This document shows, piece by piece, positions 1 through 6,720 of a stretch of DNA of 11,880 bases; within the stretch, counting starts at the first letter, position 1; every line of letters starts with the position of its first letter. Made by a program: the position numbers and the translations under genes. The notes beneath the pieces were generated by a model. It searched no databases. It was not told where the DNA came from and saw only the letters and a list, made by a program, of their open reading frames with translations. Source of the stretch: a virus (Duplodnaviria > Heunggongvirae > Uroviricota > Caudoviricetes); the IMG/VR virus record IMGVR_UViG_2602041579_000011, positions 1-11,880 of that record. The stretch is one strand, 5' to 3'.

Positions 1-280
1 TCAACACATCCTGCGCCTCTAAAATTACGGGGCGCTTTTCCGGCGACTGCTCATCCCCTTCACATAACCCGGCAGCAACATCCAGGAAGACCTGTCTGAT
101 GCTCCTTCTGGCTGCTGCCTCATAAAACTCCAGCGCGGCACCTTCAACACGGTCCAGCGAGATGTCCAGGTCAAAAATTTCACCGTCAAAGCGTTTTTTG
201 TCCCGTAACGCTAAAGTTACCGTAACTTTATTCTCAAAATTGCGGATCCCTTTCACAATCAGTTCATAGTTTTGAGTCAT
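1..280 (-). CDS. DUF1327-family phage protein (YdfR-like); 3' end runs off the window
   Basis: ATG at 280-278 (minus) with a GGAGAG SD about 8 nt upstream, starting 4 nt after the holin stop. Translation MTQNYELIVKGIRNFENKVTVTLALRDKKRFDGEIFDLDISLDRVEGAALEFYEAAARRSIRQ... resembles the YdfR-type protein that lies between holin and endolysin in Qin-like prophages (from memory). Confidence 0.6.
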   Translation of the reverse strand, partial: MTQNYELIVKGIRNFENKVTVTLALRDKKRFDGEIFDLDISLDRVEGAALEFYEAAARRSIRQVFLDVAAGLCEGDEQSPEKRPVILEAQDVL

Positions 281-284
281 TGAA

Positions 285-500
285 TTACTCTCCCCGTGCA
301 GCCTTACGCTTGTCTTCTCTGATTTTGAAGTACAGATTTGTCAGATAAGTCAGGAAGCCCAGAACCAGACTCCCAAGTACACCAATCGCAGCCCACTGTG
401 ACGGACTGACCTGATCAAGCCACTGTAAAAACCAGTAGCCAGCACTGCCTGCGGAGGTGCCGTAGGCAATGCCCGTTGAAATTTTGTCCATGGATTTCAT
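285..500 (-). CDS. Class II holin / pinholin, phage 21 S-like (71 aa), with dual-start motif
   Basis: ORF-track protein [71 protein letters not shown] matches my recollection of S21 (EssD/EssQ-type): two TM segments, charged C-terminus, Met1-Lys2-Ser3-Met4 dual start. GGAGGTGAGG SD precedes the ATG. Confidence 0.85.
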
Positions 501-560
501 AGCCTCACCTCCGCAAATAACGGATGGCGTAGTTTTACACTGAGAAATGAAAGGGATTTG

Positions 561-584
561 AAAAGAAAAACCCGCAAAAGCGGG
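561..584 (-). terminator. Intrinsic terminator between tRNA cluster and holin (minus strand)
   Basis: CCCGC-AAAA-GCGGG hairpin at 571-584; on the minus strand it is followed by TTTTTCTTTT (plus 561-570). Confidence 0.5.
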
Positions 585-660
585 CGAAACGATATATACA
601 GAAAGGAAAGCACTCTATCCAACAAACCACCCACAGTTAATCGGAATAAAAGCAGAGTGC

Positions 661-733
661 TTATGAATGATCGCCTGCTCGAAGGTTAGTATTTCTGCAC
701 AGCAATTTTGCAAAAAAAGGCGATCATTCATAA
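661..733. repeat. 15-bp perfect inverted repeat (TTATGAATGATCGCC / GGCGATCATTCATAA) with 43-nt spacer
   Basis: Arms at 661-675 and 719-733 are exact reverse complements; no ORF; lies downstream (minus sense) of the tRNA cluster. Confidence 0.8.
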
Positions 734-740
734 CTTAAAC

Positions 741-786
741 GTCTTTCAGTCACTCCGGGATTTCCCATCATCGCAGACTGAAAGAC
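741..786. repeat. 11-bp perfect inverted repeat (GTCTTTCAGTC / GACTGAAAGAC) next to the 3' end of the first tRNA
   Basis: Arms at 741-751 and 776-786 are exact reverse complements with a 24-nt loop; candidate tRNA 3' processing or termination hairpin. Confidence 0.7.
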
Positions 787-791
787 TCTAA

Positions 792-867
<76 letters not shown>

Positions 868-870
868 ATA

Positions 871-946
<76 letters not shown>

Positions 947-948
947 AC

Positions 949-1025
949 TGGACCGCCACCGGGGACTCGAACCTCGCACACTCAACTTAAAGGGTTGACG
1001 CTCTTTCCTGATGAGCTAGTGGCGG
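949..1025 (-). tRNA. tRNA-like gene of uncertain identity (possible Lys-UUU-like, with atypical C at position 33); may be a pseudo-tRNA
   Basis: Reverse complement CCGCCACTAGCTCATCAGGAAAGAGCGTCAACCCTTTAAGTTGAGTGTGCGAGGTTCGAGTCCCCGGTGGCGGTCCA: perfect 7-bp acceptor stem (CCGCCAC/GTGGCGG), T-loop GGTTCGAGTCC, encoded CCA. But the anticodon loop is CCTTTAA, the 5' base is C, the discriminator is U and the T-stem has one mismatch. Confidence 0.45.
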
Positions 1026-1026
1026 C

Positions 1027-1102
1027 TGGTGGCCCTTGCTGGATTTGAACCAGCGACCTGGCGATTATGAGTCGCTCGCTCTCACCACTGAGCTAAAGGG
1101 CC
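1027..1102 (-). tRNA. tRNA with CAU anticodon, ileX-like (tRNA-Ile2, lysidine-type, AUA-decoding) rather than elongator Met
   Basis: Reverse complement GGCCCTTTAGCTCAGTGGTGAGAGCGAGCGACTCATAATCGCCAGGTCGCTGGTTCAAATCCAGCAAGGGCCACCA: anticodon loop CTCATAA; overall sequence very close to my recollection of E. coli ileX and unlike metT/metZ. Confidence 0.75.
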
Positions 1103-1206
1103 GGGCGCAGCATAATAACGTTACGAAATCAATGTTGCAAGCATTCAAAAATCACCCTTATCTCCTCCACTAGCGCATTCACCATGTCTATCCGAGATAA
1201 GTGGTA

Positions 1207-1230
1207 CAAAAAACCCGCTTGTGGGCGGGT
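1207..1230 (-). terminator. Intrinsic terminator just downstream of the Q-like gene (tR'-like); hairpin is also terminator-like on plus
   Basis: ACCCGC-TTGTGG-GCGGGT hairpin at 1213-1230; on the minus strand followed by TTTTTTGT (plus 1206-1212); on plus followed by TTTTGTTTG. Confidence 0.5.
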
Positions 1231-1296
1231 TTTGTTTGCTTTTGCCATCACGTACAAAATCGGCAAAATATCAGATTTGCATGAAATATATGCCTT

Positions 1297-1986
1297 TCAA
1301 TCTACTTTTGCAACACTTTGCTTTGAAAATGCCGCCTTTTGTTTTGAACGTGTTCTCATTACAAACAATAAAGCCTCACTATCAAGTCGGTGAAAAATGT
1401 GTTTCATTGCAACCCAGTGACGAGTAAATGTTTTGGACCAGTTTTTAGTTGTCACTCCCGCCAGTAATGCCAGCTCCTGGTATTCATAACCTTCCCCACC
1501 AAAAAGTTCTGCTTTTACTGCCTGCGCCGCCAGCCAGATTAATTTTTTCAGGCGTTCCTGCGTTTTCCCTGCAATTTTTCTGGTACCGGATTGAGTATTA
1601 AATTCATTCCACGCCCACTGTGTTATCGCGATCTGATATTCCCAACAAATACTCCCGCTGTAACACCACAACAACCAGGCTTTATGATGTTCTTCAAGAG
1701 ACAGAACAGCCCGCCGCCACGATGATGTCGAAAACTCAACCGGACTGACCAGAGGTATTGACGTCCCCTTCGCCAGCGATTGCTTTCCCGGGATTGGTGG
1801 ATTATCCCGCGTTATCATTTTTCCAGTCACTTCATCGCGGTACCGGATTTTTTTTCGCCTGTAACGCCCTGTATCGAACATGGCATTCTCTTGCCAGGCT
1901 TCAAGCTGACCTTTTGTTGCCCCACTCAAATCAGCGGTGGCGATAATGAGCTGCTCACGCACAAACTGTAAATACTGGTTATTCAT
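1297..1986 (-). CDS. Putative late-gene antiterminator Q-like protein (about 229 aa)
   Basis: Sits between rusA and the tRNA/lysis cassette, the canonical Q position. ATG at 1986-1984 overlaps the rusA stop (ATGA); the ORF-track start at 1992 is a GTG. Family call rests on synteny and a vague recollection of a 230-aa Q family; not verified. Confidence 0.5.
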   Translation of the reverse strand: MNNQYLQFVREQLIIATADLSGATKGQLEAWQENAMFDTGRYRRKKIRYRDEVTGKMITRDNPPIPGKQSLAKGTSIPLVSPVEFSTSSWRRAVLSLEEHHKAWLLWCYSGSICWEYQIAITQWAWNEFNTQSGTRKIAGKTQERLKKLIWLAAQAVKAELFGGEGYEYQELALLAGVTTKNWSKTFTRHWVAMKHIFHRLDSEALLFVMRTRSKQKAAFSKQSVAKVD

Positions 1987-2342
1987 GCGCACTCCAGTTC
2001 TGTGATTTTTATCCCCAGCATCCCACCAGGAACGAGCTGACCGCGCACAATATTGATTTCATCAAACTGCTCGTCGTCTATGAGTAGTCCGGCATGCGTC
2101 AGCGCATCCAGTGGTGCTTTCAGGATATTGTCCAGGTCACGACGGCGCTTATCCGGTGGCTCTGCAATAATCTTTATCGCCAGCCGTCCGGACAGGTTTA
2201 ATTTCAGTCGCTGCTGGCGAACAATAAGCGCCACATCCCGGCGATAACGCTCACCGGTTTTTGATACAAAATATGTGCTGCCACGACGTCGCCAGTAGGT
2301 GTTCACCGTCGGCGGGTAAGGCAAAACAAACTCTATACGCAT
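1983..2342 (-). CDS. rusA: RusA-family Holliday junction resolvase
   Basis: 119-aa protein MRIEFVLPYPPTVNTYW...PDKRRRDLDNILKAPLDALTHAGLLIDDEQ... shares the PD(K/R)RRRDLDN and DALT.AG..DD.Q catalytic motifs with E. coli RusA. AGAGG SD 6 nt upstream of ATG at 2342. Confidence 0.85.
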   Translation of the reverse strand: MRIEFVLPYPPTVNTYWRRRGSTYFVSKTGERYRRDVALIVRQQRLKLNLSGRLAIKIIAEPPDKRRRDLDNILKAPLDALTHAGLLIDDEQFDEINIVRGQLVPGGMLGIKITELECA

Positions 2343-2354
2343 CAGTAACCTCTT

Positions 2355-3332
2355 TTACCCGAGCACGCCGGTTGCAAAGGCGTGATCAAGAAAACGAAAA
2401 ATTAAATCAACCTGGGAACCATGCTTTTCTTCGAACGCCAGCGGATCCGCATGAAGCTCGTTGTGATGCTCCCGACACAGCGGTAGTGTGAAAATATCGT
2501 GGGATTTTGTTCCCATTCCCCCCTGACCATAACCAATCAGGTGATGGGGATCGTCGGCTGGTTGACCACAACACGCACACGGCTGTGTCTTTACCCAGCG
2601 CGTGTATTTCTCGTTAACCCAGCGGCGACGTTTAGGTCGCTTCATGAAAGATTCAGGAGACTCCGGATCAACGGCAATGCTGACCACCGTCTTTTCCTGT
2701 GGTGGGTTCTGTTGCTGGTGGGCGTGAGGCGGTAGCACAATATTTTTTGTGCGCTGCTTCAGTATGCTGGTGGCTGTCTGTTCTCCCGGTATGATGTCGC
2801 TTTCGCGGTACACAGAGCGAATTTTTTCCGTACGTAATCCCAACGAACGACGTAATACTGCCTCCGGTAGCGCGTCCGCCACCTGATTGCAGACCGCCCA
2901 CCAGGATAACTCAGCCAGCGATAATTCCCGTTCCTGCGAGCCATTCATTGCATGGCGTATGACGTCAATCATCCATGCTGCCAGGTTTTGGTGAGCAAGT
3001 TGCCCGAGTGATTCGGAGGTCTGGTCGCGCAGCTGGTTATCGCAGTGCCAGCACAACACCATCGCGCCAGCGCCATAACGGTGAATGACGGTTTCACTGT
3101 GGTGATAATCGCCGTGTGGCCACTGGCAGGATTTAACATGACGCAGGAGCCAGTCAGACAGTGCACCTGCGCCACCAGCAGCACGAATCACCCGCTCATC
3201 GCTGAAAAATGGCAGTAATGATTTATCCTCCGCCAGCGGCTGGCGAACGGCAGGGACGACTCCGGACGGCAGACCGCGCATGCTTTTCGGTTCAGGCTCC
3301 ACCAGCACTCGAGGGTTATGAAATACTTGCAT
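2355..3332 (-). CDS. DUF968-family phage protein (YdfU-like), C-terminal Cys/His HNH-like motif
   Basis: Translation from ATG 3332: MQVFHNPRVLVEPEPKSMRGLPSG...CACCGQPADDPHHLIGYGQGGMGTKSHDIFTLPLCREHHNELH... closely resembles my recollection of Qin YdfU. The ORF-track start at 3404 is a GTG giving an odd 24-aa extension, so ATG 3332 is preferred. Confidence 0.7.
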   Translation of the reverse strand: MQVFHNPRVLVEPEPKSMRGLPSGVVPAVRQPLAEDKSLLPFFSDERVIRAAGGAGALSDWLLRHVKSCQWPHGDYHHSETVIHRYGAGAMVLCWHCDNQLRDQTSESLGQLAHQNLAAWMIDVIRHAMNGSQERELSLAELSWWAVCNQVADALPEAVLRRSLGLRTEKIRSVYRESDIIPGEQTATSILKQRTKNIVLPPHAHQQQNPPQEKTVVSIAVDPESPESFMKRPKRRRWVNEKYTRWVKTQPCACCGQPADDPHHLIGYGQGGMGTKSHDIFTLPLCREHHNELHADPLAFEEKHGSQVDLIFRFLDHAFATGVLG

Positions 3333-3405
3333 GGATTCACGGCCCGGCCTAAGGACCACCAGCCCAAGTTCCGGTACCAGAACAGGTCGAAGTAATACCC
3401 GCACG

Positions 3406-3795
3406 TTACCTCCAGATCCGTTGCTGGAATGTGCGGGACGGACGCGGTGGGCGTTCGGAGTAAGGGAGCCTGACGTAGATTATCCAGTGACGGTAGTCGA
3501 GGCTAAGGGCTTTCTTAAACTCATACCCACGTCTGCGGTAGTTCTGAATTAGCCACGCTGCCTGCTCTTCAGTGCATGGAGGGTGTTGGTACCAGTCGGT
3601 TTTAAATATGTGTGAACGCCGCCCGTGCCGGATGGCAAGGCCAGTATCTGAAGAGTGAAATTTGATATTGTGCACCGTCAGTTTTCTCTGCTGGCGCAGC
3701 AGGTGCCAGTTGTTCAGGCTGACGAGCGAATTGTAAACCAGAATACGTGGAAAAAACAAAACCAGTTTGAACGCTGAGAGATCCCCATAAATCAA
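3406..3795 (-). CDS. Hypothetical protein; start uncertain (possible GTG start at 3675 giving 89 aa) or remnant of a frameshifted gene
   Basis: C-terminal about 89 aa (…HIFKTDWYQHPPCTEEQAAWLIQNYRRRGYEFKKALSLDYRHWIIYVRLPYSERPP…) looks protein-like; the N-terminal 40 aa of the ORF-track frame do not. An overlapping frame (3602..3916) is also open. Occupies the position of rem in Qin; no family recognised. Confidence 0.3.
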   Translation of the reverse strand: MIYGDLSAFKLVLFFPRILVYNSLVSLNNWHLLRQQRKLTVHNIKFHSSDTGLAIRHGRRSHIFKTDWYQHPPCTEEQAAWLIQNYRRRGYEFKKALSLDYRHWIIYVRLPYSERPPRPSRTFQQRIWR

Positions 3796-4093
3796 CGCGA
3801 GTAAACCAACGCCATATTCTGATAGTTTCTGGCAAAGTAATTAAGGACGTGCACAGCAACGTTCGTCTTGACATTGGCGCGGCTGTCGTAAGCCATTCTC
3901 TACTAACATCATACATATCCTGATGTTAAACCTAAAATGCAATCCCTTATCTTCAACTGCAAGCCACAGAACTATCATGCTCAGCGTCGCCAGTAGGCGA
4001 CCTACCAGCACTGGCCCTGAGTTACATACTAAATATAATCAGGAAAATATTGCGACAGAGGAATTCATTACCAGGGCAGGTATCCAGTAAAGC

Positions 4094-4151
4094 ATTATGT
4101 CGGCATTAGTGAAGCGATACGTTAGCATCGCTTCACTAATGCCGACATAAT
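4094..4151. repeat. 58-bp perfect hairpin palindrome (25-bp arms, 8-nt loop)
   Basis: ATTATGTCGGCATTAGTGAAGCGAT (4094-4118) and ATCGCTTCACTAATGCCGACATAAT (4127-4151) are exact reverse complements around loop ACGTTAGC; no flanking U-tract on either strand. Confidence 0.9.
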
Positions 4152-4316
4152 TAGCGAGTAGGCATAGAGGTGATCTCATTAATTTTCTTGAATAAATCAT
4201 TAGGCCACAAAACTCTATGCCTCTCTTACTTGCCCTCCTGGTACCGGAAACTACTTAGAATCAGTGCAGGTTATTTGAATAATTAACATGGGCTTATATA
4301 TGAAAAAAATAAAAAT

Positions 4317-5183
4317 TTAGGGGTATGATTGCAGAACTGTAATACCTTCTTTCAACTGTTCAAAATTCTTAAACTTTCTGAGCCTTTCTCTACATAGATC
4401 TCTGGACTTACCATTATCATCTTTATGAATGAATATAATATTCACATCATAACTTAACTTTCCATACATTGGGCCAGGGCAGGCAAGAAAATTATCATGT
4501 CGATATCTGTTACCAACAAACCAATACCCCTCATATCCCAACATGGATAAGAAGTCTACAACATCATCTGTAACTTTCTTATTAACAGCCTCACAGAATA
4601 TTGCTGGCTTGTTATTTTTAATTGTATTCACAGCACCACGCATACAATTGATTTCATATCCTTCAACATCTATTTTGATGAAATCAATTTTTATCCCTAC
4701 AGACTCCATAAATGCATCTATGGTAATAATGGCTGGGCTGGGCTGGGCTGGGCTGGGCTGGGCATCATAGCACCCTTCATTATTATAACCATTTTCTATA
4801 GAAAATGAACCGTAATTCCAGGGTTTATCGTATGAAGATACAGGAATTATAATATCCCCGCAAATATCACCAACAGCTTTGTTATATGGCATAACATTCA
4901 ATACGTTATTTATAGCCAGATTTCCACACAACATATTAAATATTGGTGGCTGAGGTTCAAAACATATTACCTTTCCATTTCTACATATTTTTGATAATGG
5001 TATTGTATGCAAGCCTATATTTGCACCAATCTCTAAAACATTGCTGCCTTCTGATAATAATGTTTTGTATAAGTCGACCTCAACTTCACACCATTCGCCA
5101 TAATTTGAGGCATAGTTAGAGATCATATCGCCCCGGAGTAAAATAAAACTTCCCCATCTTAACTCTTTAATATACGTTCTCAT
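4317..5183 (-). CDS. FkbM-family (Methyltransf_21) SAM-dependent methyltransferase, AT-rich cargo gene
   Basis: 288-aa protein with SAM-binding motif VLEIGANIG, VICFEPQP, and the FkbM signature IDFIKIDVEGYE followed by KPAIFCE. AAGGA SD 7 nt upstream of ATG 5183. Visibly more AT-rich than neighbouring genes (by eye, not computed). Confidence 0.8.
   Translation of the reverse strand: MRTYIKELRWGSFILLRGDMISNYASNYGEWCEVEVDLYKTLLSEGSNVLEIGANIGLHTIPLSKICRNGKVICFEPQPPIFNMLCGNLAINNVLNVMPYNKAVGDICGDIIIPVSSYDKPWNYGSFSIENGYNNEGCYDAQPSPAQPSPAIITIDAFMESVGIKIDFIKIDVEGYEINCMRGAVNTIKNNKPAIFCEAVNKKVTDDVVDFLSMLGYEGYWFVGNRYRHDNFLACPGPMYGKLSYDVNIIFIHKDDNGKSRDLCRERLRKFKNFEQLKEGITVLQSYP
4731..4763. repeat. Pentanucleotide tandem repeat (GGCTG)x6.6 inside the methyltransferase ORF
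   Basis: ggctgggctgggctgggctgggctgggctgggc read directly; on the coding strand (CAGCC)n encodes AQPSPAQPSPA between the SAM-binding motif and the DVEGYE motif. Confidence 0.95.
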
Positions 5184-5590
5184 TCGCTAATCCTTATCTA
5201 TATTAAAATTACTTATATAACGTCTTACTGAAGTGGGTTAAGTGCGGGTGCGTTGAGGATGCCTGACACATCAGAGGTGGCGAGGGATTTCTCCCTCGCC
5301 TGGTCTCTTACTCCTCAGGTTCGTAAGCTGTGAAGACAGCGACCTGGCGATTAACATCGCCTTTTGCTGCTTCATAGCCTGCTTCTCCTTGACCTTTCGG
5401 TCCGTAAGAGGCTAATCTCTATGTGTCGCATAGATATGGCCTCAGATTAATGTTAAGCGTCTTGCAGGACGCGTAATGTTAACTGGGGCTTTTCTCTATC
5501 TGCCTTTTGGTGTTCATGCCTGAGGCAGATAGCCTCAAGCACCCGCAGCAATTCTACTTAACTCTCGCTTTACCGCAAACCGTTTTTACC

Positions 5591-5612
5591 CGATATGGGA
5601 ATTCCCATATCG
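5591..5612. repeat. 22-bp perfect palindrome centred on GAATTC
   Basis: CGATATGGGAATTCCCATATCG is its own reverse complement; starts 9 nt past the stop of the 34-aa mini-ORF; no U-tract follows on either strand. Confidence 0.9.
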
Positions 5613-5620
5613 TAATGAAT

Positions 5621-5725
5621 TCAGTTCCCTAGTCGATCCATCAAAAACACAACCAGGCAGTAAACGCCCACAACAGCAACAACAGCCAGCGCACCTTCCA
5701 TTGCCAGTGATATATCATCCGACAT
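5621..5725 (-). CDS. Small hydrophobic peptide (34 aa, one predicted TM helix)
   Basis: ATG at 5725-5723 preceded by AAGGAGGG SD at 5 nt spacing; translation MSDDISLAMEGALAVVAVVGVYCLVVFLMDRLGN. Below the ORF-track length cutoff. Confidence 0.45.
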   Translation of the reverse strand: MSDDISLAMEGALAVVAVVGVYCLVVFLMDRLGN

Positions 5726-5760
5726 ATTCCCTCCTTTGGTGTTAATCCCGGCGAACGTTT

Positions 5761-5844
5761 TTACCCCCACCGACAAATAACATATACTAAAAAAGCGATA
5801 GCCATAGCAACGCCTGTAATTGCAAATGCTTCAGGCCAGTTCAT
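5761..5844 (-). CDS. Small hydrophobic peptide (27 aa), translationally coupled to the DUF551 gene
   Basis: ATG at 5844-5842 overlaps the DUF551 stop (ATGA); GCAGGAGGTG SD sits inside the end of the upstream gene; translation MNWPEAFAITGVAMAIAFLVYVICRWG. Confidence 0.4.
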   Translation of the reverse strand: MNWPEAFAITGVAMAIAFLVYVICRWG

Positions 5845-6710
5845 TGGCGCACCTCCTGCGGCGGTTCTGGTAGAGGCATCCAGTGTGATGGTATCCACGA
5901 CGCACCAGGTATTATCCACCCATCATTAGCGTCAGGATGCCCCGGGATGTAAGTCGCCCATTTCATTCGCCAGTCACCTTTCCTGCCAAAATCCCTGGCA
6001 ACAAGAACGGCTGTTTTGGTATCCGGCATTCGCTCACTACAGCTTATCCAACTATCCGGAGTTACCGGATAGTTGCCCGATAGTGCATTCTGCTCCAGTG
6101 ATGCTTTTACAAACCACGCTGCCTGAACTATAACGCCATGAATCCAGCGCAAATCAGCATCGCGATCTTTCTTTTTCATCTTTTCGCCACTTAAGGCCTT
6201 GCTTATGTGGCTGCGTACCAGGTCTTCATGTAATTCCTTCGCCTCCTCAATGGTGAAACCACCAGGCAGAAGAGCCGGAGTTACCGGAGAGCTGGTTGAC
6301 GCTTCCGGGATTTTCCGAAAATTATTGGTTGACGAATCTTTATTTTCCCGAAAGTTTCCGGACTGAAGCATGGCTTCGCGGCAATCGTTCCAGCCTGTAG
6401 CGTATGCAGCCGCTTTGCTGCTGCCTTCAACTGGCGCATCCTGCCAATACATTTCTTCCGGCACTATCGGCGCTGGAGGGGCGGCAAATAGATATCCGCC
6501 AAAGTCAGGAAGCTCTCTAATGGCCTGTACGAATTTTTGTTTGCCTACGTCAACCCCTAATGGGTAATGAGCTATAATCTTTGCCACCGGCTCTGCTTCC
6601 AGCGATGCCAGCGCAATCCGTGCCAGTTCCATTTGTTCACCACGGGTAAGCCCGTTTTCAAGCGGATTTTTAATGAACAATTCAATACGTTCTTTGGTAA
6701 TAGTGGTCAT
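5841..6710 (-). CDS. DUF551-domain phage protein (289 aa)
   Basis: C-terminus WISCSERMPDTKTAVLVARDF...SHWMPLPEPP matches the DUF551 hallmark (W-x-S-x-x-ERLP ... HWMPLPEPP) as I recall it. AAGGAGT SD upstream of ATG 6710. N-terminal about 200 aa not recognised. Confidence 0.7.
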   Translation of the reverse strand: MTTITKERIELFIKNPLENGLTRGEQMELARIALASLEAEPVAKIIAHYPLGVDVGKQKFVQAIRELPDFGGYLFAAPPAPIVPEEMYWQDAPVEGSSKAAAYATGWNDCREAMLQSGNFRENKDSSTNNFRKIPEASTSSPVTPALLPGGFTIEEAKELHEDLVRSHISKALSGEKMKKKDRDADLRWIHGVIVQAAWFVKASLEQNALSGNYPVTPDSWISCSERMPDTKTAVLVARDFGRKGDWRMKWATYIPGHPDANDGWIIPGASWIPSHWMPLPEPPQEVRQ

Positions 6711-6720
6711 GTGTTACTCC

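Follow-up and report, generated by a model that had tools for sequence, protein, structure and literature searches.

A candidate repeat-switched FkbM methyltransferase locus between hokD and its terminator in lambdoid prophages of Escherichia coli

In teaching, phase variation in Escherichia coli is commonly put down to invertible promoters (fim) and Dam-methylation switches (pap, agn43), and hypermutable repeats within coding sequences are seen as characteristic of Haemophilus, Neisseria, Campylobacter, and Helicobacter. In published accounts, the only modes of E. coli phase variation described are inversion and Dam methylation (PMC11868660), and the species is said to avoid simple sequence repeats (SSRs) in coding regions (PMC3315296); the introduction of another paper also reports that E. 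coli avoids SSRs (PMC4692102). Here we analyze positions 1 to 11,880 of the IMG/VR virus record IMGVR_UViG_2602041579_000011 (the window, meaning this whole stretch of 11,880 nucleotides), which in minus-strand orientation is the early-right, or nin, region of a lambdoid prophage. Its subject is a gene for an FkbM-family S-adenosylmethionine (SAM)-dependent methyltransferase that follows hokD and carries a perfect (CCCAG)n tract within its reading frame. With a probability of roughly 0.7, we consider the locus to be a rare lambdoid cargo cassette, in which a repeat-switched methyltransferase placed between hokD and its terminator serves as an ON/OFF contingency locus. A full-text literature search returned no description of the locus, of SSR-bearing FkbM genes in E. 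coli, or of a switch built on CCCAG repeats.

Prophage-encoded, phase-variable modification of the O-antigen is known from the gtrABC operons of P22-like Salmonella phages. The likeness is one of concept, namely surface-glycan modification by a temperate phage, stochastic among lysogens, with the glycan target being putative in our case; gtr, however, relies on an epigenetic switch (Dam/OxyR at the promoter) and on membrane proteins that glucosylate or acetylate, whereas the present locus has an SSR in the coding region of a soluble methyltransferase. RfbT (WbeT) of Vibrio cholerae, the O1 Ogawa/Inaba methyltransferase, acts on the terminal O-antigen sugar. It is likewise a lone methyltransferase, and the serotype flips through frameshift or other mutations in its gene, but that gene is part of the chromosomal O-antigen cluster and is not known to carry a long dedicated SSR. 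The SSR loci of Haemophilus, Neisseria, and Campylobacter (lic1 and lgtC tetranucleotides; polyG tracts of Campylobacter jejuni capsule and lipooligosaccharide genes) share with ours a perfect short-unit repeat in the open reading frame (ORF) of a surface-modification-type enzyme; in both, changes in unit number shift the frame, otherwise identical alleles differ in length, and purifying selection acts on the remainder of the gene. Our locus differs in its E. coli host, its carriage as prophage cargo, its pentanucleotide unit, present in up to 33 copies, and in being known from the comparison of alleles. Type III Mod phasevarions, such as Neisseria modB with its CCCAA repeat, also combine a SAM methyltransferase with an intragenic tetra- or pentanucleotide tract (PMC5909438). 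Mod enzymes, however, methylate DNA at N6 of adenine, have a DPPY motif and a target-recognition domain, and are encoded next to res, whereas the window protein is of the FkbM type, has neither a DPPY motif nor a res partner, and probably does not act on DNA. The locus is distinct from each known system in host, genetic vehicle, repeat type, or enzyme class.

The gene and its tract have the following parts in the window:

4317-5183, minus strand: gene for an FkbM-family SAM-dependent methyltransferase of 288 amino acids, in frame (ON)
5191-5195: Shine-Dalgarno sequence AAGGA of the methyltransferase gene
4731-4762, minus strand: perfect pentanucleotide tract (CCCAG)6CC, which reads (GGCTG)n on the plus strand and encodes AQPSPAQPSPA (Tandem Repeats Finder: period 5, 6.6 copies, 100% matches)

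An initial annotation, made from the letters alone, had called the product an FkbM-type methyltransferase, and membership in that family is firm. The protein scores 57.4 bits against PF05050 (Methyltransf_21/FkbM; cut-off 22.7, E = 2.7e-15), covering profile positions 1-171 of 173, and 95 bits against TIGR01444 (fkbM_fam; cut-off 37.7, E = 5e-27), and it also matches PHROG 8156 (7e-24). All nine residues that are invariant across 51 sequences of the family are present, including G53 and G57 (EIGANIGLHT), E76 (FEPQ), K170, D172, E174, and E177; the protein thus has the glycine-rich SAM-binding motif, the acidic residue that comes after strand 2, and the K-I-D-V-E-G motif. An AlphaFold2 model, which shows a class I Rossmann-like methyltransferase fold, was confident (pLDDT 93.5, pTM 0.92), with dips only at approximately residues 111-150, around the tract. 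When the model was compared with the PDB using Foldseek, the FkbM structure 2py6 from M. flagellatus ranked second (E = 5e-9), and the other matches were generic class I methyltransferases (CbiT, RumA, COMT, TYW2). The view that the gene is a single AT-rich piece of cargo was also borne out: its GC content is 35.4% (30.8% at third codon positions), as against 48.2 +/- 4.2%, with a minimum of 38.6%, for 867-bp windows elsewhere in the stretch.

The tract, which the initial annotation had missed, is 80% GC inside this 35% GC gene. In the window it abuts, at 4730|4731, a 15-nt in-frame deletion (CAGCAGTGTATTGAT, residues QQCID); the window allele is derived from an n = 7 allele by loss of the QQCID codons just after the tract. 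We compared 12 DNA alleles, a small sample; the protein-level set is larger but biased. The loci used for comparison carry L labels, among them L001 (E. coli E41), L004 (E. coli E9), and the methyltransferase-free L010 (O55:H7 CB9615). Genomic context was examined at L013, L015, and L016, among others, and L019 came from a pattern scan of metagenomes, which gave this one true match and three chance matches. The alleles are as follows:

Lineage 1, L003: n = 3, OFF
Lineage 1, window: n = 6 + CC, ON
Lineage 1, L004: n = 10, ON
Lineage 1, L001: n = 12, OFF
Lineage 1, L002: n = 17, OFF
Lineage 2, L013 and L014: n = 2, ON
Lineage 2, L019: n = 3, OFF
Lineage 2, L016 and L017: n = 15, OFF
Lineage 2, L005: n = 33, OFF
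Lineage 3, L015: n = 7, OFF

The tracts of 17 and 33 units belong to strains VTB97432v and TUM9812, respectively. All 12 tracts are perfect, and their lengths differ by multiples of 5 nt. The state of the gene tracks n mod 3: the frame reads through at n = 1 (mod 3) in lineage 1 and at n = 2 (mod 3) in lineage 2, and eight of the 12 alleles are out of frame. Two pairs of alleles separate the tract from the rest of the gene. L004 and L001 have no difference at 840 nt outside the tract but have 10 and 12 units, respectively, and L013 and L005 differ by 2 nt outside the tract but by 31 units within it (n = 2 versus 33). In every OFF allele, the N- and C-terminal halves are free of stop codons.

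The same pattern is visible in protein databases. RefSeq annotates two FkbM fragments in four of the five complete genomes that carry the gene. Full-length proteins are few, with tract peptides of 4, 7, 9, 10, 17, and 24 residues, and fragment proteins form clusters of 132, 107, 41, and 10 members of many lengths. Many fragments terminate two to four codons past tracts of 6 to 33 residues, and many others end at contig ends, because long repeats break short-read assemblies. In public pipelines the gene currently appears as hundreds of "partial" or split FkbM fragments with no recorded relation to each other.

Two further properties of the tract may matter apart from the frame itself. An out-of-frame ATG (ATGAAGGGTGCTATGATG..., MKGAMM) lies just before it, at 4766-4780 on the minus strand, and RefSeq starts the C-terminal half of OFF alleles (P0136, P0138) at this codon; in one of the OFF frames, translation could therefore yield a C-terminal fragment without the SAM-binding half. 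On the plus strand (4731-4763), the template strand of the methyltransferase gene, the repeat has the form (GGGCT)n and fits the G3-N2 x4 G-quadruplex consensus once n is at least 4, so tract length might affect transcription or the passage of replication forks as well.

At least four E. coli lineages, with proteins of 71-100% identity, share the tract, at an identical codon position. Pairwise ratios of nonsynonymous to synonymous substitution (dN/dS) between the three lineages for which DNA is available were 0.07-0.10, with dS of 0.5-1.6, showing that the gene is under purifying selection. The tract is absent from all homologues of 40-48% identity, none of which is from E. coli and in whose alignment the site falls in a variable loop; their sources are environmental metagenomes and metagenome-assembled genomes of Burkholderiales/Betaproteobacteria. 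Taken together, these features are what a contingency locus under selection would show, and they speak against neutral decay.

The gene is rare. It was found in five of 5426 complete E. coli genomes, and the four complete-genome carriers of lineage 1 are pig or poultry isolates. Among 50,697 phage records there was no close relative (best 32% identity, in jumbo or unrelated phages), 72,556 plasmids gave no DNA match to the gene, and 185,579 GTDB species-representative genomes held no relative above 44% identity. In keeping with the initial annotation, it is thus no core or common gene of related prophages. In all examined contexts it lies directly after hokD, ahead of one of three nin modules (DUF968-rusA, DUF1367-YbcO-DUF1133, or NinG-Q). 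Because the upstream neighbor is constant while the downstream module differs, the hok-methyltransferase pair appears to travel between lambdoid prophages as one unit, with recombination in the ubiquitous hok/sok DNA as the presumed route.

Comparison with L010 by BLAST delimited the inserted DNA. Window positions 3301-3763 correspond to L010 3528-3996, and 5230-5345 correspond to L010 4001-4116, leaving an extra segment between them. The following features lie at or around its edges:

3764-5229, minus strand: inserted island of 1466 bp, comprising the methyltransferase gene and a remnant of an IS4-family insertion sequence (IS)
5230-5239, minus strand: left half of the hok terminator hairpin (AACCCaCTTC), severed from its right half by the island
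3750-3763, minus strand: right part of the split hok terminator (GGTTTTGTTTTTTC; GGTTTTGTTTTTT part), now 1.47 kb downstream, past the IS remnant, as identified from the sequence and the L010 alignment
5230-5620, minus strand: hok/sok type I toxin-antitoxin locus of the hokD type, defective, with 97-98% identity to the hokD loci found in thousands of genomes
5373-5544, minus strand: structured hok mRNA leader/sok region (Rfam RF01794)
5271-5375, minus strand: hokD pseudogene with an 88-nt internal deletion, junction 5346|5345

In a typical prophage such as L010, hokD is followed directly by its own terminator, then by a small ORF and DUF968. The L010 terminator is a canonical intrinsic one (AACCCGCTTCGGCGGGTT + TTGTTTTTTC), intact and located exactly at the junction. 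Since its halves are found at 5230-5239 and 3750-3763 of the window, the cargo lies inside the terminator hairpin. The hok terminator is displaced by the cargo in all methyltransferase carriers, and no terminator-like site was found in the interval between hok and the methyltransferase gene, either in the window or in lineage 2 (L013). Lineage 2 has a terminator with a 19-bp stem straight after the methyltransferase stop codon (L013 6886-6926). A phage moron, meaning a lysogenic-conversion gene that is expressed autonomously, would have a promoter and a terminator of its own; of the two, this strong lineage-2 terminator was seen. The DNA of the island is covered in only four of the complete E. 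coli genomes.

What lies upstream of the methyltransferase gene is a hok/sok locus whose toxin gene is dead. It occupies the same position as hok/sok in nin regions of the Qin type and has a full-length match to the Rfam sok model (108.3 bits, gathering score 59, E = 2e-24, model positions 1-157 of 157), which stops exactly at the hok start codon (ATG, 5375-5373). The window contains no intact Hok ORF of ca. 50 amino acids: the 88-nt deletion takes out hokD codons 11-39 and shifts the frame, so that MKQQKAMLIA is followed by 24 unrelated residues. The missing 88 nt are present in L010 (4117-4204) and L001 (5471-5558), and HokD is intact (51 amino acids) in the five complete-genome carriers (L001-L005) as well as in L010, L013, L015, and L016. 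The DNA of 5230-5620 was found in 4719 of the 5426 complete genomes. The initial annotation had listed hokD among the genes of this slot in Qin but had overlooked it here.

The downstream flank derives from a mobile element:

3768-4227, minus strand: decayed, internally deleted IS4-family insertion sequence, with both ends kept and ca. 830 bp of the interior lost
3841-4011, minus strand: 56-amino acid ORF, a fragment of the C-terminal part of an IS4-family transposase
4094-4151 (arms 4094-4118 and 4127-4151): perfect 25-bp inverted repeat with an 8-nt loop, 100% complementary, forming a 27-bp helix in the minimum free energy fold

Window positions 3768-3911 and 4144-4227 match positions 601-746 and 1803-1886 of L011, a reference sequence from plasmid pSARC14-41 that contains a 1.29-kb IS4-family element, with 78-82% identity, and the matches of the remnant in E. 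coli genomes and plasmids carry the annotation "IS4 family transposase". This remnant accounts for all DNA matches in phages and plasmids. An intact DDE transposase gene is absent, and short transposase-derived fragments remain at approximately 3801-4012. Within the 56-amino acid ORF, ..LLATLSMIVLWL..GLHFRF.. parallels ..LLATLSTIVLWL..GLHLRF.. of the L011 transposase; by blastn, identity is 81% over window positions 3961-4012. A tblastn match of 58% over the last 24 transposase residues (374-397) falls at 3801-3872 and meets the ORF at its 3' edge only. The 25-bp palindrome lies inside the remnant, where the transposase gene once had its 5' end, and is the main source of the hairpin-richness of this flank. 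The remnant is absent from the lineage-2 methyltransferase loci. In E. coli E7-1N7 (L012 1432-1925 and 2041-3425), the same remnant, with an imperfect palindrome, lies in the equivalent nin slot ahead of DUF1367, where its neighbor is a different cargo, the type I restriction-modification genes hsdM-hsdS.

These boundaries revise the picture of one AT-rich island at 3916-5725 with structured flanks belonging to the gene. The flanks are indeed ORF-poor and hairpin-rich: relative to dinucleotide shuffles, the RNA folding z-scores on the minus strand are -9.46 for 5184-5620 and -6.32 for 3764-4316, compared with -1.49 for the ORF. AT-richness, however, holds for about 4200-5250 only, as the flanks have 43% and 49% GC, and the extra segment is 3764-5229. 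Because the upstream flank is hok/sok and the downstream flank is an IS4-family remnant, the structured flanks are not the methyltransferase's own.

We propose the following explanation. An FkbM gene was inserted between hokD and its terminator, and in the lineage of the window it is followed by an IS4-family element, by now decayed. Slipped-strand mispairing at replication would add or remove 5-nt units of the tract, which is predicted to lie in a surface loop. Because only one n mod 3 class per lineage reads through, such changes would constitute a heritable and reversible ON/OFF switch operating within a clone. The gene would probably be transcribed from PR in lytic growth and, in lysogens, by read-through from the hok promoter, which the splitting of the hok terminator would permit; translation would start from the AAGGA ribosome-binding site that belongs to the gene. 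The most likely activity of the enzyme is O-methylation of a sugar in a glycan of the cell surface, in which case switching would make lysogens heterogeneous for a surface epitope or phage receptor. The full form of this proposal, a mobile cassette of hok and a switched methyltransferase that recombines among lambdoid prophages, is transcribed in lysogens from the hok promoter, and stochastically methylates a surface glycan, hedging phage adsorption or immune recognition as a phage-borne SSR contingency locus of E. coli, is a tentative one that we rate at somewhat below even odds. If it is true, temperate phages are able to import ready-made contingency loci into E. coli, the tract is a new and easily genotyped marker of within-strain heterogeneity, and the locus offers a one-gene, one-repeat system in which phage-encoded surface methylation can be related to superinfection, the host range of therapeutic phages, and serology.

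Several observations weigh against this proposal. The variation in tract length is known from alleles of different strains rather than from one clone or from raw reads. Several ON tracts (n = 2-5) are so short that they would not be very mutable, which may leave some of the population fixed in effect. The window allele, which lacks QQCID at the start of a beta-strand, might be inactive even though it is in frame, and a search upstream of the methyltransferase gene in the window found no sigma-70 consensus promoter. With regard to the substrate, the support is confined to association at the level of the family and of domain fusions. The distant homologues P0040, P0021, and P0017 are in unrelated or ambiguous contexts, the structure search gave only generic class I methyltransferases, and the island contains no partner glycosyltransferase or transporter.

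Despite these points, O-methylation of a surface glycan is the activity that we favor over one on a nucleic acid, although we give it at best an even chance. It is favored by glycosyltransferase fusions, the gene cluster of one homologue, matches to the RfbT family, and the lack of a conserved DNA-methyltransferase motif. A profile search against 1.8 billion representatives showed the family to be huge; several of the best scanned matches are fused to GT2, GT9, or tetratricopeptide repeat (TPR)-GT41 modules or to a second FkbM domain, and the homologue P0028 lies in a TPR-GT41/sulfotransferase cluster. Some homologues, namely those of 40-48% identity and P0191, also match PF05575 (V_cholerae_RfbT), although the window protein falls below the PF05575 threshold. 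Methylation of phage or host DNA, or of tRNA or rRNA, with a phase-variable epigenetic or anti-restriction role like that of Mod phasevarions, would be suggested by weak matches to the tRNA-modifying TRM5/TYW2 and Taw2 models (1e-5), by the RNA methyltransferases among the structural neighbors, and by the DNA methyltransferases that nin regions often hold (for example, N6_N4_Mtase downstream of Q in L001, L013, and L016); the known pentanucleotide-switched methyltransferases are also DNA Mod enzymes (PMC5909438). The TRM5/TYW2/Taw2 matches, however, span the SAM-binding strand only (residues 43-100) and are under the family cut-offs, the (D/N/S)PP(Y/F) motif is not conserved (the QPPI of the E. 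coli proteins is QRxI in the family consensus), and full-length matches are to FkbM models only, with domain fusions that point to glycosyltransferases. A nucleic-acid target is therefore very improbable.

The other alternatives concern the gene as a whole. The initial annotation had suggested a stand-alone methyltransferase for lysogenic conversion or phage exclusion, with the structured flanks as its own regulatory or mobility elements. The gene is indeed cargo, AT-rich, and rare, it lies in a cargo hotspot between strongly structured flanks, and the left edge of the island (3764) nearly coincides with the end of the IS remnant (3768), such that the IS may once have helped to move the gene. 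Yet the upstream flank is the hok/sok DNA of thousands of genomes without the methyltransferase, and the downstream flank is a dead element that occurs beside hsdM-hsdS in L012 and is missing in lineage 2. No defence-system model matches the protein, the only PADLOC match being mad2 (E = 4e-4) over the SAM-binding strand. This explanation is thus unlikely, although a conversion or exclusion role as such may be envisaged. A decaying pseudogene with a neutral, unstable microsatellite would account for the excess of out-of-frame alleles, and the window copy does have its 15-nt deletion and an adjacent hokD pseudogene; however, both gene halves are intact in every OFF allele, dN/dS is low across lineages with saturated synonymous divergence, the tract is perfect and keeps its codon position in four or more lineages, and all catalytic and SAM-binding residues are conserved, leaving decay with only a slim chance. 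Repeats are also hard to assemble, and many database entries are contig-end partials, so the differences in copy number could in principle be sequencing or assembly artefacts. This we regard as close to negligible, given that exact 5-nt multiples are seen in closed genomes from independent laboratories and platforms and that the same range of lengths, with clean flanks, recurs in hundreds of draft assemblies.

The surrounding gene order is that of a lambdoid early region. It starts with a cI-like repressor gene (10148-10921, plus strand), cro, cII, and an O-like replication gene, followed by DUF551 (5841-6710), two tiny membrane ORFs, and the region studied here. Beyond it lie a small conserved ORF (phrog_1212), DUF968 (2355-3404), rusA, Q, four tRNA genes, and a holin gene. 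The slot between the DUF551 block and DUF968/rusA is a cargo slot, as had been proposed; in K-12 Qin, the equivalent place holds relB-relE-hokD-rem-ydfU. The small ORF at 3406-3684 was considered as a homologue of K-12 Rem and rejected, as the two have no similarity.

The two very small hydrophobic ORFs between DUF551 and hok/sok (5621-5725 and 5761-5919, both minus strand) gave no family match and resemble single-pass membrane peptides; the former is the annotated 34-amino acid protein WP_001278454.1. L001 is the closest complete-genome relative of the window and carries an IS5-like ISKpn26 between this 34-amino acid ORF and DUF551 (L001 6072-7052). As the window lacks ISKpn26 and the hokD of L001 is intact, the window copy is a distinct, further-decayed derivative. 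Further upstream in the same prophage early region, L004 has a truncated gene that RefSeq annotates as "dTDP-6-deoxy-L-hexose 3-O-methyltransferase" (6222-6344), which would be the remnant of a second sugar methyltransferase carried as phage cargo.

Other minor features were noted along the window. Inside the O-like replication gene (8376-9452), positions 8977-9059 hold adjacent tandem arrays, TCTTTATCTGTA x2.9 and GTCGTGACAC x4.9, that resemble the iterons of lambdoid replication origins. A match to the Rfam Trp_leader model at 10861-10954 was under the gathering score and was taken as chance. Just downstream of the Q gene, at 1208-1281 on the minus strand, there are sub-threshold matches to isrK/isrJ (22.7-24.5 bits, E = 0.2-0.5), small RNAs of Salmonella prophages; these are probably chance as well, although the position recalls that of isrK in Gifsy-type phages. 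The tRNA genes (Met-CAT, Lys-TTT, Thr-TGT, and Gly-TCC) lie at 793-1102 on the minus strand, between Q and the lysis genes, and the set at this position varies between related prophages, with L003 having Lys and Ile only.

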